A DNA stretch of 60,262 nt, filler included, from Bipalium vagum (lineage: Eukaryota), in assembly GCA_037834085.1 (NCBI GenBank). It is 3 parts of 3 records of this genome, joined end to end, with 100 filler letters (N's around TTAATTAATTAA, not from the genome) between each part and the next. Parts side by side here need not be neighbours in the genome. Positions count along the whole stretch, not along the records: positions 44,541 to 60,262 come from JBBMKC010149933.1; 2 more parts are not named here. One strand, 5' to 3'. A program made the position numbers and the translations under genes. A model generated the notes under the pieces. That model saw only the letters and a list, made by a program, of their open reading frames with translations, ran no database searches and was not told the origin of the DNA. Below, in pieces: positions 6,531 through 54,985 of this stretch. Within the stretch, counting starts at the first letter, position 1; every line of letters starts with the position of its first letter.

Positions 6531-9500
6531 TCACTTTTTCTTATTAAGGGTTTCATGGGTAAAATCGAAATGAGGTTGTGTAAGCCTTTTAACGGAACCA
6601 TACCATTCTAAAACACCATTGTAGTTCACACCCCATTTTGTCATTAATTCAGGTAAACTGCAAATCATGTAATCAACTTGACTTATTTCGCAAACAGCCA
6701 AAATATCTGCAATGCCTAAAGATGGCGATCCACCGATAAATAAATTTGGTTTAGCGAGAAAGTATTCGTTCATCGCTTTTAAATCTTCTTTCATTAATCC
6801 AAAATATTGATTGGCCATGTTCATGTCAACGGGTTTCTTTGTAATCTTTGGTTCAATTAGCTGAAAATAAAAATATGGACACGTCTTTTCAAGGCCTCAA
6901 GTAGAAATCAAAAAATAATTTTTCAACTGTATTAAAACTGACAGAAAAAACGGATCATATCTTAGTCAAAAAGGAAAGTATCAAAAATATTTTGAATGCA
7001 ACGTCGAAATATATCGATTCTAGACTTCATCAAAACCCTTCAAATTTTTTTATACTGGTACTGTTTCTTTAAAAATAAATCAAGACTGAGGTACAAAATT
7101 AGTGGCGACAATGATCAGATAAAGTATTTTTCGGCGATGAATTCTTAATACACTCTAGATTTTTCTCTAATAATTATAGAAACCTCCTGTGGTAAGCGAT
7201 TCTAAGAAGTTACTTTTACATTATGTGTATTTTTAATTATAAAACTATAATTTTAAAATTTTTTTTCAAAATACATTAATCCAGAAATTGTGTAACACAT
7301 AATGACGAGAATTCAATACAAATATTCACTGTAGCAAAAAAAGATAATGTTCTGATCTTCTCTCAATCGATTTAATTCACGACTCAGCTTGCATATATTT
7401 TGTTTTCCCAAGAAATGTACTAGGAAAACTTTTATGTCGTGCCCAGATTTCAATGCCTCCTCCTTTCTTCTTTTCGACTCCAAATTCTGCAATGCAAGGC
7501 CATCCACATATTCATTTCAGGAGAGTAAGGTGATGAGTATTCTTAATCTCATCTGGTCCAAGAAAGAATTTTTTAATTTTGTTGTACGAGAGCCAATATT
7601 GTACTGTATAAAGGTGAGATCTCAAAGTTGATGTTTATTCTTCAGATTAGCTGATGCAAATACGATTAGATGGAACGTGATTTCTATATATCTGAACTAA
7701 GAAACAAATTTTTAAAATTTCAAAGATTCTGCGACATGCTTTTCTTAATTATTTTTTTCAGTCACCAGTGTATTAAATCTCTAAAAAGTACATTTAACTT
7801 TGGCATTTCATAAGAAATAAAAATTGGTATATTTTTACTTTCAATTTTTATCAATTTAATATTAAATTTCCATTGAATTCAAATTAACCAATTTCCAAAA
7901 AAAAACGGTACTACTTAAGACTGAAGCCGTTGGTAATAGGTAAGTCAAAAAACATTGTTCCTTTAGATTTTGACATTAAAAAGCTATCTGTTTATTATCG
8001 TTGGAATTCAAAATCCTGGGTGACTATCATTTTTTCAAGATTGGCTAAATAATTAAAACAGCAAAAAGAAAACATCGGACGCAGAATACTATTATTGTTA
8101 GACAACTCACCAGTTCATCATAAAGATTTAGAAACGAGTAACATTTTTTCCAGAAAATACGTCATCTTGTATTCAACCTTTAGACCAAGATATTATAAAA
8201 ACATTAAAAGATTATTATTATTATAAGAACTTGTATATCATTGGAATTTTACTTAAGTATTAATTTCATACAGGAAAATTGGATTTTAAAAATTTATAAC
8301 AAGATGTGATTTTTGATAGCGAAATATCAACAACTATCTCTAAAATAATCTCTTACAAATGCACATGTATTCAAAAATAAGAAAAAAAAGGCGAAAAAGA
8401 AAATCGAAAAAATGAAAATTATAGACTTCATTACTTTTCAAACAAATGAAATTTAAATAAAATCAGAAATTTTATAAATGATACGTTTAATATCGATTTT
8501 AGTATTATAAGAGTTTCTTAAGGTTTTTTCACATTACTTCTCATTATGAACACGTGAGAAAATCTGAAAGTTGGTGTTCATATTGATTTTATTATTAAGA
8601 ATGTAAATAATTTAAACAATTAATAATTATTATTATATAAAAATAATAATTATGTCAATAATTAGGAAAAATAATTTTCGACATAGTTTTAAAATTAAAA
8701 ATAAGCAAGGTAAAATTATTTTACAAAAAAAATAAAATTCACAAAAATTTATCAAATATATTGATGTAAATCTCATTTTAAATTAGAAAGTTAAATTTTT
8801 TGTGTATCTTGCTGTAATGAACACAAATATTCAACTCATGTGACTACGACCATTATTCTTGAACCAATCAATACATAGAAAACAAAGAAAAAAGAATAAA
8901 AAGACGAATAAATGGATAAGGAAATAAGACCTGACAATTTATTACTCGTAAATACTACGTAAGCATAACGAGATAAATAAATAAGATATTAATCTTATAT
9001 TCGAATATCGAATGAAACATGACCTTTGAGAACATGTAACGATTTACAACTTCAAATAGTGACTTAAATAAACCAAGAAAAATATTCAAATATGTTTACT
9101 TTGTTTTACCGTTCGGTGTTGGTTTCTAGATGTCATTGAAACATCAAAAAATGTTTGAATAAAGAATGTGAACTGGGTTAAAACAGACGTCAGACAATTA
9201 AAAATAAACTATCACTGGTAAATGTTTGATCCAAAGATAAGTGGAAGAAGAAAACATTAAAGAATTAATATTTGTGAAACAATTATGGAAAAGGAAATAA
9301 ACCGATATTTGACATAGAAAAAAACTTTAAAACAAGTTAAAACACACAAAGTTACTGGAAAGATAAAAAGTTACTAATCACTTTATTTAAAAATAGAACC
9401 GAATGAAATAAATAGATTTATTATTACCAATGTGCGAAAATACATTGCGAAATGCAATCGTAGATTCAAGTGATACCAGTGAAGAAACTCTTCGACCTTA

Positions 9501-9899
9501 GCCTTGATTTGCACATCTTTTGAAGTTATGTTCTTTTCGTTATTGTACTTTTTAATGGCATATTTCATTATGGCAATACTGAATACATTTTCAATAGATC
9601 AATAACCAAAATTCAAATTGATAACCTCTCAGATAGTTTGAATCCATTATCGTCCATTGCTGGAACCTTGTTGAAATAATTGATTTCATGAAAATTTTCA
9701 GATAAGTGTTCGCCTGAATAATGAATAAGGAATGCATAATGGATGATAATAATTGTATATATGACGAATTATTAAACATATCTACACCTTTTCTTAAATT
9801 GATATTACATGATTCAAAGGGTATATTTGCATATTTAAATAAAATATAACAAGCTCTTGCAGGTTGAGATAAAAAATCTAAATATAGCTTCAAACTCAT
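6531..9899 (-). CDS. GSTT: Theta-class glutathione S-transferase, copy 2 (226 aa); exons 9899-9788, 9713-9626, 9578-9428, 6860-6531
   Basis: GT-AG introns and the same first three exon sizes (112/88/151) as copy 1. Protein reads MSLKLYLDFLSQPARACYILFK...NKVPAMDDNGFKLSESIAIMKY...SLGIADILAVCEISQ. Confidence 0.92.
7300..7740 (-). mobile_element. Highly degraded Tc1/IS630-type transposase remnant in GST copy 2 intron 3
   Basis: Minus strand gives FIQYNIGSRTTK (QDNA..H-like) and PYSPE*N (PYSPELN-like). Confidence 0.35.
7900..8220 (+). mobile_element. pogo/Tigger (DDE_1) transposase fragment
   Basis: Frameshifted KSWVT..DWL...LLLDNSPVH...FPENTSSCIQPLDQDIIKTLK, matching the pogo LLLDN..H and NTT..QPLDQG motifs. 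Confidence 0.7.
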
Positions 9900-12189
9900 A
9901 ATACACTTTTCAATTTAAATGATATCACTTACACATTTATTTTAGTAAAACAACTTATAAATACAATTAACATTTTTTTCTTATAGCAATAATTAAAGAA
10001 TTTTTCTAATATTTAAAATACTATTCTAAAAAACACTAATTCTGAAAATGATTTTCACAATCTTGATCAATTTATCAGCTAGCTTGTCGTCCATCATGAT
10101 TAATCGGAACAGAGATTCTAAAATATGAAGAGAAATGTCAAAAATATCAAATGAATTTAATCGTATGTCAAACCTTTGGACACTGGGTTGCCAATTATGT
10201 GTTGCCAAAGCACTTATTCGATTTAAAACCAGAGAAATATTTCAAGAACGATATTTATAAAATACAGTGAGAAATAACATTAGTAAGAAAAAAATATTTT
10301 TTTAAAAAAGTTTTTGTATTCTTTCATTAAAATTATATAATAAAGCAAGATGGAATCGTTTTCCTAGAATGATTGATGATAAACATTTCAATATTAATAT
10401 TTTATGTAGAAAGAAATACTTTTTAGATATATATATCTAATATTCCAATTTATTTATTTGTTACCCTCTGATATCATGGTTTTTAATACACAAAAATAAT
10501 TGTTTAAAATGAAATCAAATTTTTGTCAGATTCTGCTTGTTGGTGCATTATATCCCTTTTCAAACAATAAAATAAAAAAAAGGATTCAATACTGAAAATT
10601 TCGAATTATGAAGTATGTAAATATTTAAATAATAGTGATCAATTAATTTTAGTAAAATTCCAAATTTTATTTTGATTTACAAGATCAAGCAGAACATTAA
10701 AAATACAAATTCATGTGAATAACTATTTAAAAATTAACACAAATACAAATATTTAGAATTGAAAAAAATGAAAGTCTCGAGAAACATAAATAATTGAAGG
10801 TAAAGGTAAGAAGGTTAGGCATGAATATTTTGGGTTTACCCAAGACATCCCCCGGGAAAGATAACCAAGAAAAATCATAAAAAGAGTAGAGATGTAAAGA
10901 ATAATAATAATATTAATAATTAAAATTAATTAACTCTTGAGAAAAAATTAAAAATTCCCAGATATTTTTATTTTTTAAATACAGGAAATAAAACAACACT
11001 CCAAAAGTAATTTTTATTTTTAAAGAAGTCTAAAAGAGGTATTTTATAAATATTAATGATCATCATAAAATATTTTTTAGGGAATTTTAGAATTTTAAGA
11101 TGATTTTGAGACTATTTCGAGAATAATCTCTAGATGAAGATCAAGTATATAAGTAGAGGGATTCTAGCATATTTTCACCCCTCAGAAATCGTGCTAAGCA
11201 GAAAAAGGTTTACAAAGAATTTCTGAATACGAGAAGATTTGAAATTATTTCACGGACCTAGTGGAAAAAAATCGATACCACATTAGAAAACTATTGTTCA
11301 AAGGAGATTAGTCCTGATTTTCGGAGGCCGAACCCATTGTCCAAAGGATCTTTTTCTTTAAAACCAAGTATTATTATGCTTAATTCAGTATTCGGACTAT
11401 GCTTAAAATTCCCCACCAGCGAGTTATCGATGAGCAACCGTTAGGGCTCAGACGATAACTCGGGAGTTTTAGCAGAAGATAAGCTGAAAGATCTTTCTAT
11501 TTTCTTTGAACTTTATTTTTTTAAGTAATTATTAATAAAAGTAATATTTTGTTTTAATCAAGCTTTAATATTTTGTTTTAATTAAACTTTGACTATCATT
11601 GATTATATTACTGAGACATTACATCAACTCATTCTTTATAATTGTTATTGGATTGTGTTGTGTGAAACATTTCAGACATTAATTTTGATCCCAGACTCTT
11701 GAGTATCTCTTGTATTTCTGTGTATTTTTGTGATATAAATACAATTATTGCTTTACTGATTGTTATTATTTTCACCACCTAAGAGTTGGAGTCAGGTCTA
11801 AATTTGATACACTAATATTGAACAAATAAGTGAATTATTTACAAATTATATATTTGAATATTATATAAATTAAATACAGTCAGTGTTCTCTTAATTGCCA
11901 AAAAATTATTATAGGCTTCATCTATGAAATATTCTGTTAATTGCGAAATTCTAATATTTTCACCTTTATTACTTAACATTTTAAAATTTTGTTTTAATAA
12001 TGAATTTTTTATAATGAATCATTTAATATTTATAGAATTCCACAAATATGATCAAACTAAATAATCACACGAATACATATCCACATTTAGAACCTATTAA
12101 AACTATAAATTAATTCCTTCACAAAGTATTTGAAGAATTATAAGACTAATATATATACATTTTAAAAACAGGGTATCTATTATACTTTG

Positions 12190-12528: not shown

Positions 12529-12617
12529 AGTCACGTGTTGCGTAATTATGTATTGTTTGAATAAATACTTTATATAACTCTGACGTCTTTTCAATGTGTA
12601 GTAAAGAAGAACTAACG
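12529..12617 (+). repeat. 5' LTR (~88 bp) followed by PBS-like GGCGACC
   Basis: agtcacgtgttgcgtaattatg...gtagtaaagaagaactaac is repeated at 15180-15255. Confidence 0.85.
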
Positions 12618-15179
12618 GGCGACCACACCGAAAATGTACATGCCTTAACCAGAAGCATGAAAAAAGTTAGTCATGGATGCTTTACCAAAATCAAACGATA
12701 TAACGGCAGAAGCTCTACTGAAGCCGAAAGATGGTTGAAAGATATTGAGGAATGACTCAGTATAAATGACTTATGCCTTCTCGGCATATTTGATTTGCTA
12801 TGATCCGACGAAGCCTCAACCTTATGGAAGAGTTTCAAGACAGAAGCAACAATAAAAGAAGAAGCCAAGTCGTGGTTTTCTGACACATTATGGAGAAGAA
12901 ACCAATAACCGATTTCATTTGCGAATTGTCAGAAGTTAGACAAAAAATCGGAATGTGCCAGATGCTGAGATGTTCGAGACAGCGGATGGCAGACAGTGGA
13001 GTTGGATGAAGATAAGAGGTATGAAGATCTAAGTGTTCTGGGATTCCGGAGTTTCAGTTACTGTGATGAACAAAAATTGTTGGAACAAAATTCAGAATCC
13101 ACGTCTAGTGGAAAGAAACATGTTGTTGAGTGGCGTATTTTCGTCTGGAGGAGAAAGACCACTTGGATCTTTCAAAGAAAATACCTCTTGGAAGGGAAAG
13201 GGATTGAAGTTGAAATTATTGTAGTGAAGAAGCTGCAGCCCGACTTTATTGGTGGTGTCGACATTATGAACAATTTTGGGATTCAACTGTGTGTGGTAAA
13301 TAATATTGAGTCATCAGACTTGATTAAGAAAATATCTGACATAGATAGAGGAGCAAGTAATGATGGTATTCAATCATCAAACCAGTATACAGTTTCGTAA
13401 TATGTTACTACGACATGGGAAGATATTCATGACCCATTCATTTGATATTGGGCACACCGGATTGGTTAAACATGACATAATCGTCACCGGCCCACCTATT
13501 GCACAGGCATCACGAAGACAAGCAATGCATCTTGAATCTAAAGTTGATGAGATGAATACTCAACTTTTAGATGCCGGTGTCATTTCCAAATGCAAAAGTG
13601 CATGAAGCTCCCAGTCGGAAGAAAGATGGATCTATCCGAATTTGCGTGGATTTCAGAAGTGTAAACGCCATAACAGAAAAATACACGTTCCCGATGCCAG
13701 ACATCCAAATGCTGCTGGATTGCTTGGCGGATTCAAAATATTTTTCGTTAATAGATCTTGGCCAAGCCTATTACCAAGTGAAATTGACAAGCACAGAAGG
13801 ATAAACTATGTTAAGCACCAATTCTGGGTTTTCCAAGCAGAGATCGTATTTTTATTGGATACAGATGCAAGCTTTGGAGCGATTGGATCTGTTTTGAGTC
13901 AGCTGAAGGAAGATGGAAGTGAAACAGTTATTGCTTATGCCTCTAGACACATATCTATCCATGAATTGGGATATTGTGTCACCAGAAAAGAGCTGTTATC
14001 AATCTATGAATTTGTTCTTCATTTCAAGCAGTGGAAAACATTGCATTGTGAGAACAGATCATAAAGCTTTGGTTTTTATGAATACCACGAAGAACCCAAT
14101 TAGTCCACAGTTTCAAACTTGGCTAGCAAATCTATCAGAATATAATTTTGAATTGAGGTTCAGAAAAGGTTAAGATCATTGTAACACTGATGGTCTATCC
14201 AGAATTTCCCATGTAGTATGCTCTGAACACCAAACGAAGCATGAACACGCCAAGATTGAGAAGCCAAAAACAAAATACATCAGTGCCGTTCATAATATTA
14301 CTCCTCAATTGGAAAGAATAAGAATCGAACAGAGGGCCGATAAACTGATATCTGGAATCCTTATCCCGAGAAGAAGCTCACATTTCTTAGAGCATATCGT
14401 GGTAGATGTAGCCTTTATGGGAAAAGCAGCGGCACACTGCAAAAACATGGTTGTCATTATTGACCGTTTTAGCAAACTAGTGAGTTTATGCTCGATGTCC
14501 AAACTTCATGATCAATCAATCTTCAAGGCAATAATGAACCATTGGATTTATAGATTTGGCAAGCCGAAGATTATCTTAACAGATCGAGGAAAGAACTTTG
14601 AGAGTTCTTGGATTCAACAAAAATGGAGAGACCTCAATATGGAGTGCGAATTCAGTTCACCTTACCAGCATCAGTCCAACGGTCTAGTCGAGCGAGCAAT
14701 CCGAACGATTCGAGATATGATAACCACATCTCAAAAGAGCGGTTGTCAAGAAAAAGATTGACACGAATTGCTCCCAAGAATTGAGTTTACTATAAATGGT
14801 AATCAGCAGAGCTCAACAAAGTTTTCTCCATTTGAGCTTGTATTTGGCTACAAAGTCAATCTTTATTCTGGCAGCCGTGACCAAACCTATCCAGATACAG
14901 AGATCATTAGAGAAGCTCGAAGAAACTTAGAAATTGCAGCCGATAAAATGAAGAACTTCGAAACGGATATTAGAGGTTCACGTGAGTTTTCAATTGGGAA
15001 AAAAGTATTTCTACGGAAAGAGCCGCAAAACAGAAAGAAGAATGATTTCCAATATGAAGGTCCATACAGGATCACAAACTTCCTATCCCCAAATCAAGTT
15101 GAACTGACAGGTCCAGAAGGAATCAAACTGAGGAGAATTGAATGGCTGAAGAAGTGGCATCAGTCTTAATTGAAGGGGG

Positions 15180-15255
15180 AATTACGTGTTGCGTAATTAT
15201 GTTTTGTTTGAATAATACTGACGTCTTTTCAATTTGTAGTAAAGAAGAACTAACT
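15180..15255 (+). repeat. 3' LTR (76 bp) preceded by polypurine tract GAAGGGGG
   Basis: aattacgtgttgcgtaattatg...gtagtaaagaagaactaact lies just after the integrase stop at 15169 and the PPT at 15172-15179. Confidence 0.85.
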
Positions 15256-15732: not shown

Positions 15733-16450
15733 TTACTCATAAATATAACAGTAAAAATCTAAGTTTGGATAAACACCAATATAATTCGTTATTTCTGTAG
15801 TATTAAAATAATGAGGAAAACATCCTTTTACACTTTTAAAATCAAAAGTACTTGGAAAAATTTTCAAAGGAGATAATAGTAAATTTATTGAATCAACAAA
15901 TCTTATTTTAAAATGTTTAACTAACATAAATGTGATTTTATTTCTTGAACTACATTTTTCTTCAGATAATATATCGAATTAACCGACCTAATATAGGATG
16001 ATAATAATAACTCTGCATAATGAACAACTAAAGCATAATTTTTAAATCTAAAGAATTGAGAAATTTACAAAAAATATCGACTAATAATTTTGAGTTTTTG
16101 ATTAACATTTCATTTTAATTGTTAAATTTTTTGTTTTAAGAGTAAAAATAATAATTGAATTATATTTTTCTTTCATTATCATATGCTATAGCATAATTTA
16201 TTTAATGATAACCAGCATTTTTTGAGTGCCTTCAAAATTAAAAATATATTTATTTATTTCCATTATTTTCTATATAACATTTATGCTGACTAAAAGTGGT
16301 TTATAAGGTTCATTACAAATTCGATAATTTTTAAAATTACATTTATCTTGATAAGAGCTAAAATATTCTTCACCACAATCCTGACATATTTAAGAACTTC
16401 GATAAGTAGTTATATTATCTATTTTGCAAGTATGCTGATTTTGAAATTTT
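15733..16450 (-). mobile_element. Polinton/Maverick pPolB N-terminal (exonuclease) pseudogene fragment
   Basis: ORF 15733-15927 reads IRFVDSINLLLSPLKIFPSTFDFKSVKGCFPHYFNT, like IRFIDSLNF..L..LP..F...KGYFPH.FN. Upstream YIFNFEGTQ resembles FFDFE.TQ. Confidence 0.75.
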
Positions 16451-29700: not shown

Positions 29701-32700
29701 AAGATATTACTTTCGTTTTTCGTTGAAAAATTGTTCATTATTTCCATGGTGAATTACGTTCTTTATTTACAAAATTTGTGAAAAGAAAATTATTAACAAT
29801 AAAGACTTAAAATATAAATATAAAACGGTGATGCGGAGGATGAGGATGATAATAAAGACCCTTAATTATTTTCAATTCCCATGAAACGCTTTGATTGAAA
29901 CGACTGAAGAAAAAAGGGGGAAAGTTTTATAACTCTTTGAAAAGGCCCACCGTGGAATAAGGGGTAAATTAATCATTTTTTATGTCTGTAATTGATCCAA
30001 CTGCATTCAGAAGATCATTATGAAATTTTGATTTAGAAATAATAGTAATAATAATAATAATAATTTTAGGAAAGTTGTGGATTTAATCTGTCAATTTGTC
30101 TGAAAAAAATGCTAATTAATCCACTGTTTATTTAATTAATTATATTTTTTGGTCTACGCTAATGCAATAAATATAATTTTTTCTCTCCTTTTCAGTTTCC
30201 CTAAATCACGAGATTGTTATTATTAATAATATTATTATATATTAAAATAAATAAATTAAATTAAAAAAATATTTTAACTGAATAAACATATAAATATACT
30301 TACTCCAGTCCATAAAAAATGGATTTAATAAATGACTATTTTTTACGTTAATGAATTCTTTTAAATAATCAATTTTGTTTATTTTATTGCTAATCTTTTG
30401 AATTTAGAAATTTCAAATCTTTTGGAGGATCAAAAATATTTTTACTACTGAATTATGAAAGGTTGTTTGTCAAAATGATACAGGTGGAACTCAAATATGA
30501 TACGGTCAAAGATTTATGCCAGTCTTTCAATGTCAACAAAAACTATGCCAGAAAATTTCAAGATCAGTTTTTTTAACGTGGTACGTTGGATAGAAAGCAA
30601 GGATATGGAAGAAATTATATTGAAAATTATGAAGAGCGATGAAAAGTAATGTCAGCAACAATTCGTAAAAAAAATATTAAAAAATTTCAGTTAAAATAAT
30701 CCTTTTTGAAAGTTGCAGTCCTACGTGATTCTAACATTCGTTTTAGTACATTGATTAACCTTAACTTCGGTGCACGCTGTCTTTTAAAATATCTAAAATT
30801 CATCTTCAAATTTTATTGCATACATGTCTTGGATATGTTGAAGTTATTAGCCAAATATCTTTGACCTTTTTAACCGTATTTTGCTACGTTTCCTGAATCT
30901 GTTAGTTATTTTTTGGAGGACAACCTGTTCCAGGCGTCTCATAATATGAGAGACCATTTTTGAATCGTTTAATGACACGATAAAAATGGTTCTTGCAATA
31001 CGTTCAGCTTGGAAATATCTAATGACATCTGATATTTTCATTCGTCCAATGAGAAATTATATTCGTTTCTGAATATCCTCCTTTTTTCTATAAAGGTTGT
31101 CATCCAAGTTGTGTTTATTATAAATGAAAAGCAAATTAAGAAACCTATAAATCTATATGCAATTGATTTTTTTTCCCACAAACATATAAATAAAAATTAT
31201 GTAATCGATTCTTAGTTTTAAAAAACTAATTATTAAGTTATTTCAATTTTAGATTAAAATAAAAGAATGTCAAACTTCATTATGAAAATTTTATCAGAAC
31301 TATTTCTTGTAATATTGGTACCCAATTTGGTTAAAAGAAAAACAAATAAAAAGAAAATCAGTAGGAAACATTATGAATAATAAAATGAAAATTTTCAAAG
31401 TACATATTCAAAGTTATACTACCAAATAAATAAAACTGGTAAATTTAAACAAAAAAAGATAAACAGCCAATATTTATTGACAACCTAATCATTTTTTCAT
31501 ATGAAGTCAACATCTTACCTAGATCCTTCTGAATAGAATTGGTTATCTGAAGGAGAGTTGAACCATTATATACAAGAAGCCTATAACTAAATAAATTTGG
31601 AGACTTTTCTAAAGTTACAGTTGCTTGTCCAGAGCTGGGCTTTGGGATTTGCATATCCTTGCAGCGGTTGGCTTCTTGTAAAGTACATATTCTCAGAACC
31701 AAATGGGAAAAATGTCCTGATGAAGGAGGTTCATAAAACACTGTAACTTTTCGACCATTATATTCTAGACGAATTTTCGATTCCGATATTGATATGTCTT
31801 CTACAGTAAGAAATATAAGTTCAATGAATGACGTTAAAATGAGAAAGTAAAGTGAAAATTATTACCAGAAGGATATATGTTAAATTTCAATGTCTTCGAC
31901 CCCAACTTATTTCTCACTTCACAAAAATAGTCTCCATAATCTGATGTGGTTATGGAACTGATACTGAGTTGAATCGTGTAGTTCTCGAACAGAGAGTACT
32001 TAATTCTTCCGAAGGGTTTCATGCTTATGAGCTGCTTCTGACCGGGTATGGTTTGCATATTGACGTTGTGATTATCCTGTTCGTAGAACTTGGAAACCGT
32101 TCTGATATTTTGTTGAAAATACCACTTAATGACGACCTTGGTAGGGTTTGACAGCAAATTGACATTTAAATCAATATTTGATCCTGGTTTTACATATAAT
32201 CTGTTTGACGTTTGGTGATTGAGTATCGGTTTATCTTGGAGATACAAACAGGTTAGTCTCATTATTGATACAACAGATTCTTACAGAAAACATCGAGAAA
32301 TAAATATCCAGAAGCCACGCCTCCTGGTGAACGGATATGACAAGAGTACCAGCCACGGTCTTTATATGTAATTGAAGAAATATTCAGGACCGGACTTTGA
32401 TAAAATGCAAAACTATCGGATAATCGAGAACAGCTTTGTCGAATTTCTGGAGACGGTTTAATAGCCATGTCACTATTCTGTGGAGACAGATATGAAATAT
32501 TCACTGGACAGAATTCCCATTGAAAATTGTATTCCGAAGTACTGGAGGGATTTCCACCTGATGTATAACACTGAAGATGAACTTTATCACTCTCCTCAAC
32601 TGATTTTGGCATGGAAACGACTTGAATAACCGGCGGATCTAAATTATTTCAAATGGAGGGATATCAATCCGTGCGAAAGATGTCTACTAGACTAATACTA

Positions 32701-35700
32701 ATTAAACTTATCCGAGTTTTGATCTTTACAAATAGAAAATAAGCTGAAAAGTACAATTGGATTCAAAACGTTTCGATAATTTTCAAAAGGTATTGTCTCT
32801 TTCAAAGTAGTTCCCAATCACTGAAACACACTTATACAGTGTAACCAGTTTAATATCACCTCGCTTAATATCACGACCTGTTTAATATGCACTGTACATT
32901 GTTTTCCTAATCATTAAGTGCCTTTATATTCTGGTTCCGGTATAGTTTTCAGGACCTGTAGTAAATGATCCTAAATCTCTTCTACTGGCTCCAAATCATA
33001 GCCCCAAAAATAGTCGCACCTTTGCCGAGAAAAGAGAGGAGTCATGCTGAGTCATATCACGTGAATATGGTACTTGAGGAATGGTTTTAGTTTGATGTGC
33101 GGCGAAAATATCACGAATAACGAGAGCAGTGTGTATAAGTAAGATGGTACATTTTGTTTCAGTGGTAAATAAAAAACGAATTTCTTGTTTGAATGTTACC
33201 TTTGCACTAATACATGACTTAAACAATTTAATTTTAATTTGTTCTCTTTTATTTTTATAATTTTATGTAATTTTAATTATTTATATATAATAATATATTA
33301 TGTCGTTATTATATTACTATTTTATTATGCTATTATATCTCTTTACTTATTAAGATGAACATTCAGGTCGAAGGAAGATTGGTCTATGAAAAGAATTCTG
33401 TCCAAGAAGTTCGTGCATGTTTCAACTTTCTCCAGAAATGCTTAGTGGAATTTAAGTCTTTCATTAAGTGCAAAAGGTGGTTCATATCTTTTTTTATGGA
33501 AATAAATTTGATTTATCTTCGGAACGCGCTGTACCGTTGATTTTGAAATACCTGTACTCCAACTCGGTGAACTTTATTGGTGTATTCTACCAATATCCTC
33601 AACATTGCATTGAATTTCTTTTCTGCCTGGTGGACTTGTTTGAAATAAAGATCCTGTTCTTAAAAACTTGTTTATCAAGTATTTTAAGGAAGAATGAAGA
33701 ATTCTTTTGTCCTTGTTCTTTATATTGTTGTAATGATAAGCACGTCGTCTCCATGTAAACAATAAAATTTTATCCTCCAATAACAAATCCATTTATAATT
33801 CGCGCTATGTTATTTAAAATAAAGTAGTGTAATAAAACAAAACCCCTATTATATTAATTTCACAAGTATATGTGGGACATAATATAATTATTACTATATT
33901 ATAAAATTCATTATTTTATTGTTTTAAGAATAATATGATATATACGAAAAGCCATCATAAAAATGTGCATTGTTTTCGAAATTGTATTCCATTTAAAGTT
34001 CATCCTAGTCCCAGGACCTTTAACTATTTATCCCAATTTAGAACTTTACTTGATGCTGGAAACTTCATTGATAAATATTATTGTCATGTGAAAGATTTAT
34101 TAAAAAATATCGTTACGTTCGACACAATGATCATAACCTCATAAAGGTCGGATCAAAGTGCTATATCAATATTTGGCTTTAATCCATCATTCTTGGTGTT
34201 GTTTTAATGAGAGATGTCGTATTGGAAAGTGATAAATAAAGCTATATCAAATAATTAGTCAAGAATATAACACATTATCAAAGGAAGGCAGTTTGGTTTT
34301 ATTATTTGTAAGAAGTTCAAAGTCAATCTCGTCTTTGGTAAATAAACAAATCTTTATTTATTTATGTGTAATTAGTGCAGAGGTCAATACCTCATTGCAA
34401 GTGAACAGTCGGAATGGTCATTACTCTAGAGCTAAATCAATCACAATTAATGACTTACATAATATTTTGAGCAAATATTCTTTACTGGTCTCGGTAGGCA
34501 GATAGGCATGGGTGACAACACATTTGTACATGGTACCGTGATTGAGTCTGCTTGAGCCGTGAATACTGAGAGTGCTAGATAGAGAGACTCCACTGTAATT
34601 GGCCGGATTCTAAGGTTTCAATAGAGTTTAGTGGAATATGAAGATGTTAGACAAAGATGTTATACCATATCTACATTGGAATGTGAAGTTATGTCTTCAG
34701 TGCGTTTTCCTGGTTCCGTTTTAAACCACTGAATTTTCGGTTGAGGATTAGCTGCTCCGGTAAAACAAGTTAAGGTCACTTTCTCACCTTCAGGAATTGG
34801 TCCAAGAGGATTTGAATTTAAGGCAATATGGTTTGGCGCAACTATGAATTATTTAATATATTATTTTCTTTATATTTTTATTAATTTAATAATCAAAATA
34901 ATAATATTTATTTATCTCCTTCATGTTTCAGACTTTTTCCCCATACTATTCATAAATCAGGGTCACTAACAAAATCGTAGAGCATCACTTTTAAAACATA
35001 AAGTCACCCGGAAAGTCCTCTGGATTTTTGAATATATATAAGTTAATTTGTTTAAATGAACTAATGCAGCGCTAAAATATTTTTAAATAGAAAATTTCAT
35101 TATGAAAAAACTACAATTATATTCGTCACTTATTTCAACATTACAAGAAGGGTAAAAATGTTCAAATTACCAACAATAAGATTTGTGAAGTTTACGGATA
35201 AGGTGTTTTGTCAAAAGAATCGTTCGAAAATGGTTTCTCAAATTCACAGGTCAGAATTCAAACTGGATGATCATGCGTGTTTTGGACCCGAACCTGGTTG
35301 TGATAGCCAAAAGACCAGATGCCAGAATTCTCGCCTCAATGTTACAAAATTGACATAAATACTCAAAATAACACTGAGTGTCATTCAACATCATATACAA
35401 AACTGCTATTTTTCAATCATTATGATATTTTGATTACCCATAACCTAAGAGAAAAGTTTCGAATTGCTCGAGCCTATGCTTTTTTGCTGTGAAAAAATGA
35501 TTATTTGTCTTTTTAAAAGCAGATTGTAACGGGAGATGAGAAATGTATTCAATGTCTGTGATAAAGGCTGGTGAAATTCCTTTCGAATCCCAACAAAGCA
35601 GAGTTGAGAATATGGATGGACAATGGTAATTCACCAAAAAATTCTCATCTGACTTTGCTCATTTGGATTATTGTTTTTTCTTATTCGTCTAAAATCCATT

Positions 35701-37338
35701 AACCAGTAGGATTTGTGATTCATCGGAGGTTATCAAAAAGCACTTGGATAAATTCTCCGGATTTCTGTAGAAGATGGGTTTTTCAACTACCAGATCGATG
35801 GCGAAGACTAAATAAACAGGATGGAGAAATTTTTATTAAATAAAAGTGTTACAAATTGTTGGACTTTTTTCTTATATGGCACCGGACTTTCCGGATAACT
35901 TATTAATATATTTAAAATATTTATTGAGATATTTATGAATATTTTTATTTTAATTTTTTTTTAATTTTAATTATCATTTTAATTTAATTTTACAATGATT
36001 TTAAACATATTTTGAAATACTTAACGGTACATGTCACATTCATGAATATTTATTTATTTTTATTAATATTATTCAGTGTTGTAGCATTATTAATACGGTA
36101 AATGTAGGCTTTGAAGGATCTGAAGTTCTGACTAACTATAAAATATAAAGTGCACATTAATTACATAATAGCAATTGTCACAATACTTTAATTATTAATT
36201 AAATTATTCATTTTTCAATAATTTTAACCAATTAATAAGTATCTGATTAATTAAAACAAATGTATTAATTTTAATTTTTTAAATAAAATAATAATTAACT
36301 GAAATGTAAAAGCTTTTTTATTAAAAAGATATCATAAACCTCAAGATATTTTAAAAACTGCTTTAAAGTTAAATAATATAATCATTAATTTTAATNNNNN
36401 NNNNNNNNNNNNNNNNNNNNNNNNNNNNNNNNNNNNNNNNNNNNNNNNNNNNNNNNNNNNNNNNNNNNNNNNNNNNNNNNNNNNNNNNNNNNNNNATTAA
36501 TATTGATTTATATTTTATATTAATATTGATTTATATTTTATATTAATATTGATTTATATTTTATATTAATATTGATTTATATTTTATATTAATATAATTT
36601 GAAAGGTATTTTATAGAATCAATGGTTCAATACTCACAGACCACAGTAATTATTTTGGTTTGGCTCAAGACCCTTCGACCTTGATAAGTAATGAAACACG
36701 TCACTCTGTAACCATTGTAAGCTTTAAGCAAGACCATGCGAACAGTGCTCTTGAGAATGTCCGTTTTGATATCCGTTTCTGATGTATCTGGTTCCAAAAT
36801 AGTCGAAACATTTTGTTTAGGAATTTTACGTCCCAGGTTGTCAACAAGTCCCCATTCAATATTGGACAGTGGTTCACTTCCTCCTTTCAATACACAAACG
36901 AATTGCTTTGATTGTGATTCTACCAACTGGTATTCCGGATCTTCGGTCAATTCAATTTTTTCTGGTGGATCTGAAAGCAATAATAAGATTAACATTCATA
37001 GAGAGTTTCCTCGTTATCATTATTATTATAGAGTTGGTACATGATATAAGTGCACTTACAATTAACTTTCACCATTACGACATTAGACGTCAAGGAAGAC
37101 ATCCTTCCAGCGATCTTTTCCAATTTACAAAAAAACTTTGCATTGTTGTCTTGCTTGGTGAGAACAATGCTTTTGTCAATTAACTTCTTTGGGGCTTCGC
37201 TGAACCTTTCGTGGAATACATTGAGAACTGGTACGGGATTACCGCCTTCTGCAGAGCACTGAAATGATACCAGAGACCCTATCTCATGCCTCTTTTCTTC
37301 GGGTGATGATGATGTTAAGGTTACCTTCTTTGGAAAGT
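26757..37338 (-). CDS. Nephrin/sidestep-like Ig-superfamily single-pass receptor, 5' part unresolved. Confident exons: 37338-37060, 36970-36638, 34841-34666, 34609-34459, 32638-32285, 32234-31866, 31800-31519 (FN3-like), 29686-29552 (TM). Probable cytoplasmic exons: 28165-28114, 28063-27936, 27800-27753, terminal ~26805-26757
   Basis: GT-AG junctions keep one open frame, with phase-1 introns between domains. Ig motifs include FQCSAEGGNPVP..AKFFC, FVCVLKGGSEP..W..YNGYRVTC, VTLTCFTGAANPQPKIQW..MYKC, LQCYTSGGNP..DRGWYSC and DYGDYFC, joined by YPP/FAP/YKP linkers. TM VAIIIGVVGILVLLFLTLLTLVLL is followed by KCRRKK. Confidence 0.85.
28250..29200 (-). mobile_element. Degraded mariner in an intron of the Ig gene
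   Basis: C-terminal HLPYCADLSHSN*HLFGS resembles HPPYSPDLAPSDYHLF. N-terminal CRNWFKN HTH remnant is also present. Confidence 0.6.
32700..33800 (-). mobile_element. Stacked Tc1/mariner remnants, including a ~58-bp TA-CAGTG...CACTG-TA mini element at 32837-32894
   Basis: IPQVPYSRDMTQHDSSLF (mariner-like, ORF 32996-33226) and LINKFLRTGSL..PGRK (Tc1-type HTH, ORF 33574-33792). Confidence 0.5.
34999..35903 (+). mobile_element. Deleted mariner element, same family as 24893-25982
   Basis: TIR-like ends AAGTCACCCGGAAAGTCC and GGACTTTCCGGATAACTT. Internal aaattaccaacaataagatttgtgaagtttacggataaggtg matches 25422-25462. Confidence 0.7.
36496..36595. repeat. 21-bp tandem minisatellite (attaatattgatttatatttt/a) abutting a gap
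   Basis: About four near-perfect copies visible. Confidence 0.85.
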
Positions 37339-38966
37339 CTGAAATCAATATAAATCTCAGGATTATATTATTATTATTATTATATATTATTATCATTATT
37401 TTTTTTTTATTTTAAAAATAAAATTGGATTAAGCTGTCGCATTTTTAAAATGCTTTTATTTTCTGAAAATCTGGAAAAATTAGCGTATCATGGAGCTACT
37501 TCTCTGTGATCTGTCACGACTATTAGCATATCCCCTGATACCCCAAACAATTCTAAGTCAAACGAATCAAATCATTGAAGAAAATATAGCCTTATCTTGC
37601 CATTCCTGATTAGGAGGGATAAAAAATCACTTTGGTATTGGCGTAAGATTTTCTACTCACAGATCTTTGTTGCCCGTCGTCCAATCAGAGCTGCCAATAG
37701 CTCTATGCATTGGTCTCGATCTCCTTTTTCGATTCATGGCCATAAGAAAATCATCAGAAAATTAGACAGTTAAATCAGAATAGATCCAATATTGATTTTA
37801 TATTGTTATTTATTGTTATTTTGATTGGTTATTTACTATTATAATATTAATTGTTAGAAATTTCAACAAATTCAGGCATATTTTTAACATGTTATTGATT
37901 AATGACACAAATAATACATCAATAAATTAATATAATGTGTCTTCATTGTATAAATGTTAATAATCAATAAATTTTAAAACTATTGATATTTTAAAGTTTA
38001 ATAAAACAACATTTTAGATACGATTTGGCACTTTTTAAAAATTCCAAACTATGTTTAAATACTCACATTTTATATATTATTGTTGTTAGTATAATTTTAT
38101 AAATTAAATTTTATTATTTAGTAATTATTTATTTACTATTAATAAAAACATAATAAAAGACAACAAAATTTATGGTAATATAATTAAATTTAAAAAGTAT
38201 AAAAATATCAAGAAATAATAAAATCCCTATAAAAATTTTTATAGAATTTTTATTGAAAAACTGATCTTGTTTGATCGAATCAGAGAATTTCGGTCGTTAC
38301 ATTGATATAATTGGTGATGTTCCGATGATTGTTCCTTCGTTATTTTATACAATTTTTATTAACTATAAATTATATTGCCGACTGCATGATGGCACATGCC
38401 TGACATAGTCCCGAAATAATAATAATAATAATAATCACAATTATTATCATTAATTAAATTAATTAAATATATATAATGAAAATAATATTGCAAATTATAA
38501 AGTGTATCATAAAGTATTAATTATAACGAGAATTAACATAATTAATTAAGCTTTATTTCTACAATTTGCAATTTTTTCTCTCAGCACTTAAGAGTTGTTT
38601 TAATTAAGGAATCTCTAATTGGATTTTTTTGTTTTTCCACATAACATATTTTACGAAGAATTCACTTCCTTTTACGCAATGGGTAAATTTTAATAAAAAA
38701 AACGTACAGCAGTTTCATACGATAGAAATTTTATATATTATTAAAATTACATTTTGCTTCAGTAATTAAAACAGGAAAATGAACGATTCACGAAAAAAAA
38801 TAATTTTTATTTTGCATATTAAAACAAAATAATATAAATATTTTGAAAAATATTTTTAGTTGTATTAAGTTTTTTCATCGTTGTTTATTATCAAAAATAA
38901 ATATTATTAACATTAAATATTATTCTAAATATTATTAATATATTAATAATATAAAAAATAAACAAA

Positions 38967-46055: not shown

Positions 46056-47309
46056 GAGTGCATTTAATAATTGCAGCACTTACAAAAAACAAGAATTACA
46101 TTATTTTCTGTCCCAAGATTTCAAAATATTTACACAATGAAGCTATCATATTTTGTCTTAATGCAAATGTAACAAAATAATTGAAAATTTCTTAATATAA
46201 CCAACTATATTAAGAAAAAAATAAAAATACCAAGAAAAAACTGGCATAAATTAATTGCCGCATTTTCCAAAAAATCGATTTTTATTCACAAACAATGTAT
46301 CAATACGATTCTAATATTTTATTGAGCTGCCGTTAGGATAAATATTTTTATAAATTCTATTTGACATTGAAGTTACCAAATTTTCCATGTTTTCAGGGAT
46401 CCATGTCTTTCCAACCACCAGTAACTACCGATCGCAGCTCATCAATAGAATTGAATTGTTTTCCACCAGTATATACCTTCCGAACCAACACTCCCCTAAG
46501 TTTTTTATGAGATTCAGATCCGGTGAGTACGGCGGCCAGTCCATAACTTCAATATTTTTGCCTCTTAGCCATTCCATAGTTGAACGGGATACATGGCACC
46601 TACAATTATCTTGCTGAAAGTAAGGGCTGAATTCGCCAAAATCTTTTATAAAAGGTAGTAGATTGTCTTTCAGGAGTCTCTTGATAACACGGATGATAGT
46701 CTCCTTGATTACGTTTAAGTTAAGTTCATGTGTAATTGTCGAGTTTGAAATCGATTTATTGCTGGCTTTGCAAATGATCAATCATTTCGTTTTTTGTCAA
46801 AACCTTTGTGTTTGGGCTAGGCTTACGATTTTTGCAATCTCCATTTTTCAAATAATATCTTATGGAGCTTTCATTTCTGTTTAACCTATTTCCGATCCAT
46901 CTGTTTGATTTTCCGGCTTCCTGGTAGGCCTCAATCATCCCTTTCTCAATGCTCGACATTTTGCTTAAATTTAGCATGGTAAGAATTTACTAAACAGTTT
47001 AAATTATTATTTTTATAATTATTAATTCTCACTTATTTTATATTGTAAACATTTTAAGTATAAAATTAAAATTGATAAAGAAAATCCAAATTCAATTTAG
47101 TGCGGCAATTAATTATGGTCAACAAAAATTTTGAATTATATAAACAAATAAATTTAGTTAAATTACAACTTAATTTAAATAATACAATGGTGTTCAAAGG
47201 AGTTCTTATATCTTGTACTTTCATCAATTTTATGAAAATTTAATTACAGTTTATATTTTATTATTTATTAATATTTTACAAGCATCGGCAATTAATATAT
47301 GGAGCACTG
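46056..47309 (-). mobile_element. Tc1-like element with IR/DR-type ends and deleted transposase
   Basis: HTH EKGMIEAYQEAGKSNRWIGNRLNRNESSIRYYL and DDE part FQQDNCRCH..WPPYSPDLNLIKNL. Right end ...GCAATTAATATATGGAGCACTG|TA. Internal repeats TTAATTGCCGCA at ~46251 and ~47101 (inverted). Confidence 0.8.
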
Positions 47310-50160: not shown

Positions 50161-51360
50161 CTGTTCATCAAAAAAAAGTAATCCTTTTTGTGAAGGTTTT
50201 TTAACAAATAAAAAAAATTAAAACCAAAATAGACAATTAACGGAGAATAATTTTAATTTTTCTTTTGTCAAGTCTTTAAGTTGAGGGTCCTTATTATTTT
50301 GTTTTAAAAGATAAATTGAAATTCTTTATTCAAATGAATTCAAAGGGTTTTTTATTTTTATTTCGAAAAATAAATTTATATTTAAACTTTAATCTCCTGA
50401 AAAATCTTTTTTTTATTTTTATAAGTTTAATAATAATATAAAATTTTATTTCATTTGAATAATCATAATTAACATTGATAATACGGATAAAACCAATAAA
50501 TATTTGAATTTTAATTAAATCAATAATTAAATAATCACATTTCAAAATTGGATAAAAATTTTAAGAAATCAATTTTTAAATTTGATAATTTGTTTTAATA
50601 TTCATGTTTTATGGCAGAAATATTGAAAAATGTTAATTTTAATATAATTAATAATTTAATTATGATAAATAAACCAATGACATTTGCAACAAATAATATT
50701 AATTAAAGAAAATTATTTCTTTTTCTCATAATAATAATAATAATAATAATAAATCCCAAACTAAATCTGCAAATTAAAGGGATAAGTGTCCCCGAATGAT
50801 GAGCAGACTACGTCCATTGACAAGATATGGACTCAGTGATATAGTTCGATGTACTGTATTGTTTCCCCCGGGGTTCGTTAATGTATACTACGACAATACG
50901 TCCTAATCCCATTACTTTAATTACGAGCAGAAACATATCCCACCGGAATTGATCATGATTCCTTCGTGAGCATTACGGAATGTTAAAGGGAAACTGTCAG
51001 CATCCTTTAAAGAGTTTTGAAGGACTTCATCGATTTTAATTTCTTTTTGTAAGGTCTTCGCTACAAGGTTTTTATTTTAAGATCAAAACAATAAAGATTA
51101 AAACAAAATAAAAAAATTAATGATAATATTATCTAAATTGTTGATTAATTTTTATAATTAATTATTATTTATGTAAATTAATTTTTTACCTTACTTAAAC
51201 AATTCATAAGATTAATTTTATTTTATTTTATTAAAAAAAAAGATTTTTCTATTAATATTTTAAAATTTATTTCCATTATATAAGAAACCTTAAAATGCAT
51301 TTATAATAAAATGAAAAAATAAAAATTTTGTTTATTGAGAGGAATATTGAAAATTAGTCA

Positions 51361-51433
51361 GGCGATGTAGATCAGCGGTCAGAGCAGTCCATGCGCGTGC
51401 AATGGGTCCTGGACTCGATACCCAGTATCTCCG
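51361..51433 (+). pseudogene. tRNA-Ala(CGC)-derived element, copy 1 (degenerate)
   Basis: GGCGATGTAGATCAGCGGTCAGAGC...GGACTCGATACCCAGTATCTCC aligns to eukaryotic tRNA-Ala (GGGGATGTAGCTCAG...CCCGGCATCTCCA). The anticodon and T stems are mismatched. Confidence 0.7.
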
Positions 51434-51439
51434 AATAAT

Positions 51440-53070
51440 TTTCAACTATAATTATTATTTTTAATTAAAACAAAACCATTTTTTCTTTCTCGTTTAAAGA
51501 ATAAATCATTTATTATTATATTATTTAATGTTAAATATAAAAAAATGAATTTTTAAAGCTCAATTAATTAACAATTATTTTTATAGTATAAATAATTAAC
51601 AAAAAAATATAATTTTACTAAAATTAATTTCTTTATTAATATTTTTACATTTTTATTAAAATATTATTAAAACACAGAACATATTTTAAATAAAAATGAT
51701 ATTTTTATTTTTTATTATCAATAAAGAAATTTTAATTTTAAACAATTGTTTTTTATTTCAAATATATGTCATTTATTATTTAAAATATGAAATAAATTAT
51801 TTCTAATCCTAATTATTTAATTATTAATTTTCTATTAATTTCTTATAAATTAGTATTGTACAAAAATATTTTTCAATTAAAAAAATTTTTTTCTTTTTTT
51901 TCCTTTTTTAAAATTTTTTAAAATGTTTTTTTATTAAACATGAAAAATTATTTTAAATTATCAATTAATTTAATTTTAATTACAAAACCATTTTAATCTT
52001 TCATTTAAACAATTATTTAGAATTATTTATCATATATGAAATAAATGAATTTTAAATCCTAATTAATTGATAAATAGTTTCATAATTAAAAAAAACAAAA
52101 ATTATTTTTAACATTAATTTTTCAATAATATTTTTCTAATATTATTTTTTAATGTTTATTTTAAATAATTGATAAACATAAAATATAATTTTAAAAATTT
52201 TAATTATCCTTAAAAAATAAATTAATGTCATTTATTAAATATTAAATAAAAAAATTTAGGCTTATTTAATTAATATTTTTTAAAAAACTTCTTGGAAATA
52301 ATTTAAAATAAAATAATAAAGAATAATTTATTTTGTATTAATTTTTATTATCATTAATCTTTTTTTTCATTTAACAAAGCCGTTTCTTTTTCTCTTTTAA
52401 GCAATTAAATAATATATTATTTAATAAATGCTAAATATGAAATAAATGAATTTTTAATCTTAATTAATTGATAAATAAATTTTAAATTTTATAAAAAATA
52501 AAAGTTATTTTTAAAAAAAATTTATAAAAGTATTTTTTAAATGCTTTTATTTTGAATTTTTAGTAAATATTAAAAATAATTTTAAAAAAAATAATAGAAT
52601 ATAATTTATTTTTATATATTTTTATTATGAATAACGAAATTTTAAAATTAATAAAAATTACTTTCTTTCCCATAAAAAATATTTATTATTATTGTTAGTT
52701 AAAATTAATCGGAGATACCGGGATTCGAACCTGGGACCTTCACATGCGCATGCACCGCTCTGATCGCTGAACTACATCCCCGAAAATAATTTTTAATTTA
52801 TCTCACAATTATTATTTAAATATTAAACAAAAAAAAATATATTTTAGGCCTATTTTTTTCAAATATTTCAGAAATAATTTTAAATTAAATAATAAAGTAT
52901 AATTTATTTTTTTTAATTTTTATTATCAATAATCTTTATTTCAATTTAAAAAGCCATCTTTTTCATCTCTCATTTAAACAATTAATTACTATATTATTTG
53001 TAAAATATTAAATATGAAATAAATGAATTTTTCAAGCCTAATTAATTAATAATTAATTTTCTAGTACAAA
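51440..53070. repeat. Degenerate AT-rich tandem array (units ~250-600 bp)
   Basis: The block aaa(a/g)cc(a/g)ttt..tttaaacaatta..aaatatgaaataaatgaattttt..taattaatt recurs at ~51470, ~51985, ~52375 and ~52950, with a partial copy at ~51780. Confidence 0.75.
52710..52781 (-). pseudogene. tRNA-Ala(CGC)-derived element, copy 2 (intact acceptor stem with G3:U70, perfect B box)
   Basis: GGGGATGTAGTTCAGCGATCAGAGCGGTGCATGCGCATGTGAAGGTCCCAGGTTCGAATCCCGGTATCTCCG. The anticodon arm does not fold canonically. TTTT lies ~6 nt downstream. Confidence 0.75.
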
Positions 53071-54985
53071 TAATTAACAGTAATCACCGTAAAACAGTTT
53101 TTGGTTGAAATCAAAAATAATCGTGTCGCTGATAAATAAAAAATAATCAACCATGGAATTAATTAAAGGAATTGTTAACTGAAAAAATAATTAATTTACT
53201 TAATTAAAGTATGAGAAACATTAAAACAAATCATTAATCAAATTATTAATTAATTCAAGCATTTATTTTATGTCTTTTATCATCACTCAAAAGACGAACT
53301 AACAATCAGACTTTATCATAAAATAATAATAATACTTTTTTTATAAGAACATTAAAAAATATTTTTTCATAATTTTAAAAGATGGATTTTTTTAAAACAT
53401 TTTTGATTTTACTTAAACTTTTTATAAATAATTCCCTAGGTCAAAAAATAAATAATTAATACTCTTTGAGAACTAAAGCAATTCATATAAGGATTTTAAA
53501 TTTGTTTCTTATTTATATATTTTTTATATAAAATTTTTTTCTACAATTTGTATAATTAATATTTTTATAAATTGATTACTCTATTTAATATGATTCGTAT
53601 TATTATTTTATTTATTATTATGTACTATTTATTTTTGTGTGGTCACCACGTTAGTTACTACTACGTTATCGACACTTTCTGAATTCAAAATTAAGTATAA
53701 TGTGTTTTCGATGAAAATAATTGAATAGTTGAATAAGTGTTTTATTTAGATTATTTATTTAAATATAATATAAATACAATTATTAAATATTTTAAAAAAA
53801 CATAAATTATTTTTAAATTATGAGAAGCATTTATATTACATTAAGGATTAAATTTTAATTAATTTCTTAAAATTTATTTTAAAAATATTTATAATTTTTT
53901 TTATTATTTAATATTAACTAAAGTTGAATCCTTAAAATTGTTATTAAATTATTTTTTATATTAATTTTTATAATATTATATATATAATATATATATTTAA
54001 TATAATATTATATTATACTTTTATAATAATACTTTTTAAATGATAATATTATAACCATTATTAATTTTGTATTGGTAATATTAATTATTTTTTCTTTTAT
54101 TTAATAAATAATAATGTTTATTTTAAATTATTATATATTTTATTCTAAATACTATTAATATTTTTATTATAATCTTTATAAAATTTATTTTAAAATAATA
54201 TTTTATCAAAGTATTTACTATTATGATTATTATTATTGCGATAGTTATAATAATGTATATAAAAATAATAAAAATAATATTATTATTACTATTATTATTT
54301 TATTTTTAAATAGTATTTATTTTAATAATAATTATTATTATTTTAAAATATTTTATCATCTATTATAATTATTTATTTTTCCAATTTTTAAAATTTCAAT
54401 TTTTTTAATATTATATTTTTCTGTTTTTTAAAATAAATAATGTTCCCTTCGTCATTAGAATATGGTTTTCCCCAATCCTTTGCAGAGAAAAGTGGCAAAA
54501 ATTGATCGAGTTTTACCTTAGAATATTTGCCTGAAATGAATTTCGTTCAAGTTTCAGAATAATCAATAAAAAAATAATTTATAAACCATGTCTCCTAAGG
54601 AAATTGTTGTCTCTTACTAAAATTGAAATGGATAGTGGGGACCCGAATGCCATTTATAACGATAAAGGATGATAGCAGGAAAGGGGGAAATATTTTACAA
54701 AATGAAAACCAATTTCAAGTATTAATAATATAATAATGTAGGATTAAATGGAAAATCTAATTTTTTGTTTTTGTTTAAATTGATGCAAAAATGTCAAATT
54801 ATTTTTTCTTTTATTATTTTATTGCTGAAGGTAAAGGGATTTCTTTTACCTTTTTTATAATATTTATTGTTTTACTGAACCACTTTAATCAAAATATCAA
54901 AGCCATTTTTAAAATATTTTAATGAATTTAATTCATTAATTATTTTTGGTTTTTGTTTAAATAACTTTACAGAAAAATCAAATAC

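Follow-up and report, generated by a model that had tools for sequence, protein, structure and literature searches.

Two 115-bp modules in the genome of Bipalium vagum belong to a dispersed family of 115-bp repeats and are most likely (at a rough probability of 0.65) solo LTRs of a Helenus-type TRIM with a tRNA promoter. The order of parts in the unit (TG, a short leader, A and B boxes, a T4 tract and CA) is that of a Helenus LTR, and for this reason the solo-LTR reading is the best one. Membership of the family in Helenus is provisional; three of the features that define the group were found. Both modules lie in the window, by which we mean the whole 60,262-nucleotide stretch of DNA analysed, and since the copies are 76% alike, an old burst is implied.

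Structure of the Two Modules

The preliminary description of this DNA had placed two tRNA-Ala-like modules here, and a blastn alignment bears this out: copy 1 (51336–51450, plus strand) and copy 2 (52693–52807, minus strand) share 75.9% identity over 116 columns (E = 5e-16). In each 115-bp module a leader of 24–26 bp precedes a decayed tRNA-Ala core, after which come a T4 tract and a short trailer; the T4 tract lies 6 nt past the discriminator in both copies. An nhmmer profile built from the two copies detected no further one in the window (E = 7.5 for the next match).

Copy 1 starts with TG, while its 3′ end is eroded, lacks CA and possibly extends to 51451. Its leader (51336–51359, plus strand), which may correspond to U3, is followed by a decayed tRNA-Ala-like core (51360–51433, plus strand) that neither ARAGORN nor Rfam detects as a tRNA, and by a trailer (51434–51450, plus strand) with a T4 tract at 51439–51442 that could act as a Pol III stop. 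Copy 2 has TGT...ACA ends. Its leader (52782–52807, minus strand) is 2 bp longer than that of copy 1 and has diverged from most family members, and its trailer (52693–52709, minus strand) contains the T4 tract at 52704–52701 and the final ACA. The core of copy 2 (52710–52781, minus strand) retains an intact B box and a fully paired acceptor stem, including the pair G3:U70, together with a broken anticodon stem and a G discriminator, the last two read directly off the sequence. G3:U70 is the alanine identity pair of tRNA. This core reached an Rfam tRNA score of 33.1 bits (gathering threshold, 29), and ARAGORN called it Cys(GCA) on an Ala-type G3:U70 body. A 10-bp palindrome in the anticodon arm of copy 2 was considered as an RNA dimerisation site and rejected, as 1,289 of 20,000 shuffles carry one.

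An upstream flank common to the two modules had also been claimed, and the likeness of the leaders indeed exceeds chance, if modestly: 281 of 20,000 random pairs from local AT-rich DNA reached its score. The trailers are likewise modestly alike (111 of 20,000 random pairs). In the 25 bp outside the element ends the copies are unalike, with 17,709 and 13,247 of 20,000 random pairs scoring as high.

Leader and trailer form an inverted repeat of 13–15 bp. From the ends of the unit inwards, 6 terminal bp are followed by an offset, a 13-bp subterminal stem and then the 7-bp acceptor stem. In copy 1, the inner 13 bp of the leader pair with the trailer in register from the acceptor end at 12 of 13 Watson–Crick positions, a result matched by 67 of 200,000 random pairs; in copy 2 the complementarity is weak and contains indels (596 of 20,000 random pairs). 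The 6 terminal bp are inverted at 5/6 positions in copy 2 and at 1/6, ungapped, in copy 1. The complementary flanks that the earlier proposal described as extending the acceptor stem do not make up a continuous TIR. In the contigs of one sequencing run, the leader/trailer stem is present family-wide. RNA folding of the whole modules was no better than that of shuffles (z = 0.43 and −0.21), and in DNA folding only copy 1 outperformed its shuffles (z = −2.31 and −1.63, against −0.26 and −0.05 for copy 2).

Target-Site Repeats and the AT-Rich Array

Copy 2 is bordered by direct repeats at 52685–52692 (left) and 52808–52815 (right), for which lengths of 2, 5 or 8 bp fit: the flanks match at 2/2, 5/5 and 8/8 positions, but at 1/4 for a length of 4 bp, all within an ATT tract. 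In the array that surrounds copy 2, 17 of 1,080 background sites reach 5/5 and 1 of 1,080 reaches 8/8, these sites not being limited to ATT tracts, and 137 of 1,080 reach 4/5. The flanks of copy 1 match at 4/4 or 4/5 positions, depending on a one-base choice at the eroded 3′ end. The TATTATT repeat reported previously is exact (7/7) at the bounds then used and corresponds to this ATT tract read in a different register.

The degenerate AT-rich array comprises irregular units of ~180–270 bp and spans 51450–53080; copy 2 interrupts it and copy 1 abuts its left end. The right flank of copy 2 aligned with 52230–52365 (score 154; shuffle maximum, 92), and the left flank with 52861–52992 (score 116; shuffle maximum, 84). 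Beyond copy 2 the array resumes, with 78.5% agreement between 52811–53060 and 52230–52482, and copy 2 therefore sits inside it. No match to the array was found for the left flank of copy 1. Given that copy 2 interrupts the array and the left flank of copy 1 is unlike it, the copies are two separate insertions and not the arms of one foldback. The supposed empty sites near 51770 and 52230 proved to be homologous array units (154 vs. 92), but the duplication length cannot be fixed from them because the ATT tract varies in length. AT-rich simple repeats adjoin both copies.

A Dispersed Family in Sequencing-Run Contigs

The family was followed in the contigs of one sequencing run, probably from the window's own sample, which were compared with copy 2 only (region 52630–52870, at least 80% agreement, 1,835,864 contigs). 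Matches were obtained for 1,604 of the 1,835,864 contigs, 534 of them partial. Summed contig depth, in which overlapping contigs are added together and which is not a copy number, rose from 15 at 52630–52638 and 401 at 52675–52683 to 65,104 at 52693–52701, the trailer end, and peaked at 322,917. On the leader side it fell through 1,758, 1,146 and 381 across 52801–52827 to 15 at 52846–52854, a less sharp boundary because the leader of copy 2 has diverged. Long single-locus contigs have depths of 15–34, so the family must occupy at least hundreds of loci and likely numbers thousands.

The ends of the unit were located in the best 6 of 150 rows of loose-end contigs. In these rows, at least 27 contigs diverge directly outside 52693, where the DNA is unrelated and agreement drops to 0.44, and at least 96 carry the same terminal hexamer and one extra base relative to copy 2 in the subterminal repeat, followed by generic AT sequence. 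Two further groups in the same rows, of at least 43 and at least 26 contigs, traverse the leader to the CA at 52806–52807 and then differ; the inner part of their leader is like copy 1 and its tip like copy 2. The unit is thus most likely ~115 bp long and bounded by TGT and ACA, which keeps the modules where they had been placed and moves the former bounds (51334–51452 and 52691–52809) inwards by 2 bp.

The many contigs, the likeness that stops at the TGT/ACA termini and the unrelated flanks together exclude an accident limited to two copies, segmental duplication and the ordinary SINE, all of which the preliminary description had named as outcomes that would refute it. The idea that only these two copies exist is incompatible with 1,604 matching contigs, extended homology fails at the termini, and an ordinary SINE would not keep a leader before the tRNA +1 position, a fixed CA end and no tail.

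At the two box A sites where copy 2 deviates, the canonical pattern accounts for 7,613 of 8,518 (89%) and 58,887 of 62,653 (94%) of the depth, and none of the contig differences listed falls in box B. Seven contigs share both ends of copy 2 and have a different middle (52710–52781), their joints skipping 54–91 bp; this points to diverged subfamilies whose tRNA-like cores differ. The region is contained in one sequencing run, no RNA run being among the runs listed, and exact 24-mers gave 0 matches in each of the metagenome and viral contig sets.

Comparison with Helenus and Other TRIMs

Helenus (TRIMp3) comprises TRIMs whose LTR carries a tRNA-like sequence (Kojima 2024, Biology 13:119, PMC10886601). 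According to the available part of that account, box A (TRGCY, YGG) and box B (GGTTC) are conserved and isotype disagreement is frequent; LTRs measure 104–323 bp, the shortest being 104–130 bp, and for several families only solo LTRs have been described. A full element has two LTRs with a primer-binding site and a polypurine tract between them, at less than ~1.3 kb. Animal families are thought to use Gypsy, and the partners are Gypsy or Copia elements that share the primer-binding site. The same part of the account lists six animal phyla, Platyhelminthes not among them, and describes Pol III transcription of Helenus itself as not validated (PMC10886601).

The unit resembles these descriptions in its TG...CA ends, tRNA-like core, A and B motifs, isotype disagreement, T tract, length within 104–323 bp and solo copies (PMC10886601, as far as the available text goes). 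Specifically, a tRNA-like sequence within an LTR-sized TG...CA unit is seen in copy 2 and at the family ends, the 3′ end of copy 1 being eroded; the Helenus box patterns are present in most of the contig depth, with copy 2 departing at two box A sites and intact in box B; and the tRNA is predicted to be non-functional from its isotype disagreement, an ARAGORN Cys call on an Ala-type stem with a broken anticodon stem. By eye, the consensuses Helenus-4_PiIm (117 bp) and Helenus-9_PSt (112 bp), as given in the available part of PMC10886601, have the parts of the 115-bp unit in the same order and size, and the oyster Helenus-4B_SaGl shares its offset leader/trailer inverted repeat. Differences from the same text were also noted, and they count against the Helenus reading. 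The nearly perfect 13-bp stem that adjoins the acceptor stem exceeds in length those of the Helenus consensuses compared by eye, and target duplications are 4 bp in animals and 5 bp in fungi and a plant (PMC10886601), whereas copy 2 reaches only 1/4 and fits 5 bp; copy 1 fits 4/4 or 4/5. The preliminary description had held that its proposal should fall if a described family matched, and a described kind, Helenus, does match (PMC10886601, in the text available).

As expected for solo LTRs, neither a primer-binding site nor a purine tract was found beside either copy in either orientation; none appeared in the best 6 of 150 loose-end contig rows, and none of the 7 joints listed leads back in the manner of a two-LTR contig. 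These negative results count against a Helenus-type element. In TRIMs, solo LTRs can outnumber full elements by more than 100:1 (PMC13570524, in the part available). Our literature search found neither a flatworm Helenus nor a tRNA-cored MITE, with Repbase and Dfam families outside that search, and a term look-up in planarian genome preprints, supplements excluded, found no such element.

Among other TRIMs, the 5S rRNA elements Cassandra and Ajax also have a Pol III promoter inside the LTR, but one derived from 5S rRNA and not from tRNA; Ajax, which occurs in animals, makes 5-bp duplications and is found mainly as solo LTRs (1,114 LTRs against 151 internal parts; both elements per the available text of PMC10886601). 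The ta-TRIM of taeniid cestodes is a flatworm TRIM with many solo LTRs, but without a tRNA-like promoter as far as the available description goes, and its duplications are 4 bp in Echinococcus and 5 bp in Taenia (PMC4558846).

The window itself contains a broken Gypsy-type relic (12529–15255, plus strand) with an integrase core (PF00665), a primer-binding-like site and a purine tract. Its LTRs of 89 and 76 bp are identical at 71 of 76 aligned letters, its flanks match at 4/5 for a length of 5 bp, and its ends are not TG...CA; for this last reason it is not established as the helper. The 7 letters before its last base equal those at the 3′ end of copy 2, a 7-mer that occurs 11 times in the window. 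From sequence likeness, this would liken the end of copy 2 to an LTR end without making the relic the helper.

Alternative Explanations

That the modules belong to an unusual tRNA SINE, or to a retroposed pre-tRNA, copied by a LINE is very improbable, even with a tRNA core carrying A and B boxes and a T4 tract and with AT-rich simple repeats by both copies. A Pol III transcript does not include upstream DNA. Here at least 69 loose-end contigs show likeness from 24–26 bp before the tRNA +1 position onwards, the likeness ends at a constant CA that no tail follows, and the family does not show the SINE2 layout, which starts at the tRNA 5′ end and closes with a LINE-like or simple-repeat tail. The conserved leader and fixed CA end therefore exclude a normal SINE. 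The least probable account has segmental or tandem duplication spreading tRNA-Ala genes, genuine or decayed, or takes the copies as arms of a single 1.47-kb foldback. It would explain why the copies are inverted, 1.2 kb apart, and why the array begins right beside copy 1; it is refuted by the unrelated outer flanks of the two copies and opposed by the position of copy 2 inside the array (78.5% continuation) with its own direct repeat, by the hundreds of contigs that leave the ends into unrelated DNA and by the broken anticodon stem.

Because no two-LTR copy was seen, a DNA-mobilised MITE keeps a small share of the probability. Such a unit, with the tRNA captured once, would be moved by a Ginger2/TDD-type transposase recognising TGT...ACA and the subterminal repeat, a scheme that we consider unlikely. 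Both ends of copy 2 fit TGTNR, the pattern of Ginger termini, TDD-4/5 give 5-bp duplications and Ginger2 favours AT-rich targets (PMC2836005, available part); TGTNR is, however, common to Gypsy LTRs as well and for that reason does not discriminate. The leader/trailer stem, at 12/13 in copy 1 and family-wide, would suit a MITE, as would the lack of an internal TRIM part beside the copies or in the contig rows and joints listed, and there is a precedent in MER6, a MITE that took up a piece of a SINE, though not its tRNA head (PMC6887750, available part). Yet Ginger inverted repeats are 40–297 bp long, those of Ginger2/TDD being continuous and 45–297 bp (PMC2836005, available part), whereas here 6 terminal bp are inverted and an offset follows. 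The overall resemblance to Ginger2/TDD lies in TGTNR ends, 4–5-bp duplications and AT-rich targets, the difference in the long inverted repeats, and the available part of that paper mentions no tRNA. No transposase with the same ends was found within the 60-kb window. The retained A and B boxes and T4 tract beside a broken anticodon arm look like those of a transcribed unit, although this could be the state of the founder. Equally tentative is a combined scenario with no two-LTR form, in which the tRNA-promoter LTR is now a free 115-bp unit moved as DNA, by way of its leader/trailer inverted repeat, by an integrase-type (Ginger2/TDD) transposase, spreading thousands of Pol III/TFIIIC sites and bridging solo LTR and MITE. 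From the previous proposal of a DNA-mobilised element, two points stand: the unit is mobile and dispersed, its ends being fixed on either side of the tRNA, and it is not a tRNA SINE; its argument that a common leader and inverted ends exclude retroposition does not, for solo LTRs have exactly both.

Proposed Mechanism and Implications

Under the preferred solo-LTR reading, and by analogy with Helenus and Cassandra, the full element would consist of an LTR, a primer-binding site, a short internal part, a polypurine tract and a second LTR. The tRNA-Ala-derived core would supply an internal Pol III promoter, and the transcript would run from the tRNA-like box of the first LTR to the T tract of the second. 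Reverse transcription and integration would occur in trans, at AT-rich sites, through an autonomous LTR retrotransposon, probably Gypsy, and LTR–LTR recombination would leave a single LTR between the duplicated target. More speculatively, the leader of the 3′-LTR RNA may pair with the trailer and prolong the acceptor stem to ~17 bp, reaching as far as the T tract; the 3′-LTR cloverleaf could thereby be hidden from RNase P and RNase Z.

If the modules are solo LTRs, they extend TRIMp3 to one more group of animals with a family of high copy number, its LTRs among the shortest of their kind in animals; the host range would be widened and the mechanism would not. They would also give rise to false tRNA-Ala/Cys gene calls and contribute dispersed Pol III boxes to the genome. 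If the unit instead moves by DNA transposition, it would show in a living animal the LTR-to-TIR transition that is only a hypothesis in the available part of the Ginger paper (PMC2836005).

Genomic Setting of the Window

The 60-kb window has a GC content of 26% and carries spliced Ig-domain exons together with Tc1-type, integrase and DNA polymerase B fragments; its content is that of an AT-rich animal genome. Exons of a multi-Ig-domain protein lie at 31445–37411 (minus strand; Ig_3, V-set and C2-set_2 matches), and domain matches mark a Tc1/Tc3-type transposase fragment at 46425–46781 (minus strand) and a DNA polymerase B fragment at 15733–15978 (minus strand), which we take to be Polinton/Maverick-like. 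Three exons (489–881, 6531–6896 and 9591–9914, minus strand) presumably resemble theta-class glutathione S-transferase paralogues, a label that found no confirmation in Pfam, protein and PDB searches. Directly left of copy 1, at 50760–51060, lies an island of ~300 bp that is richer in GC than its surroundings.
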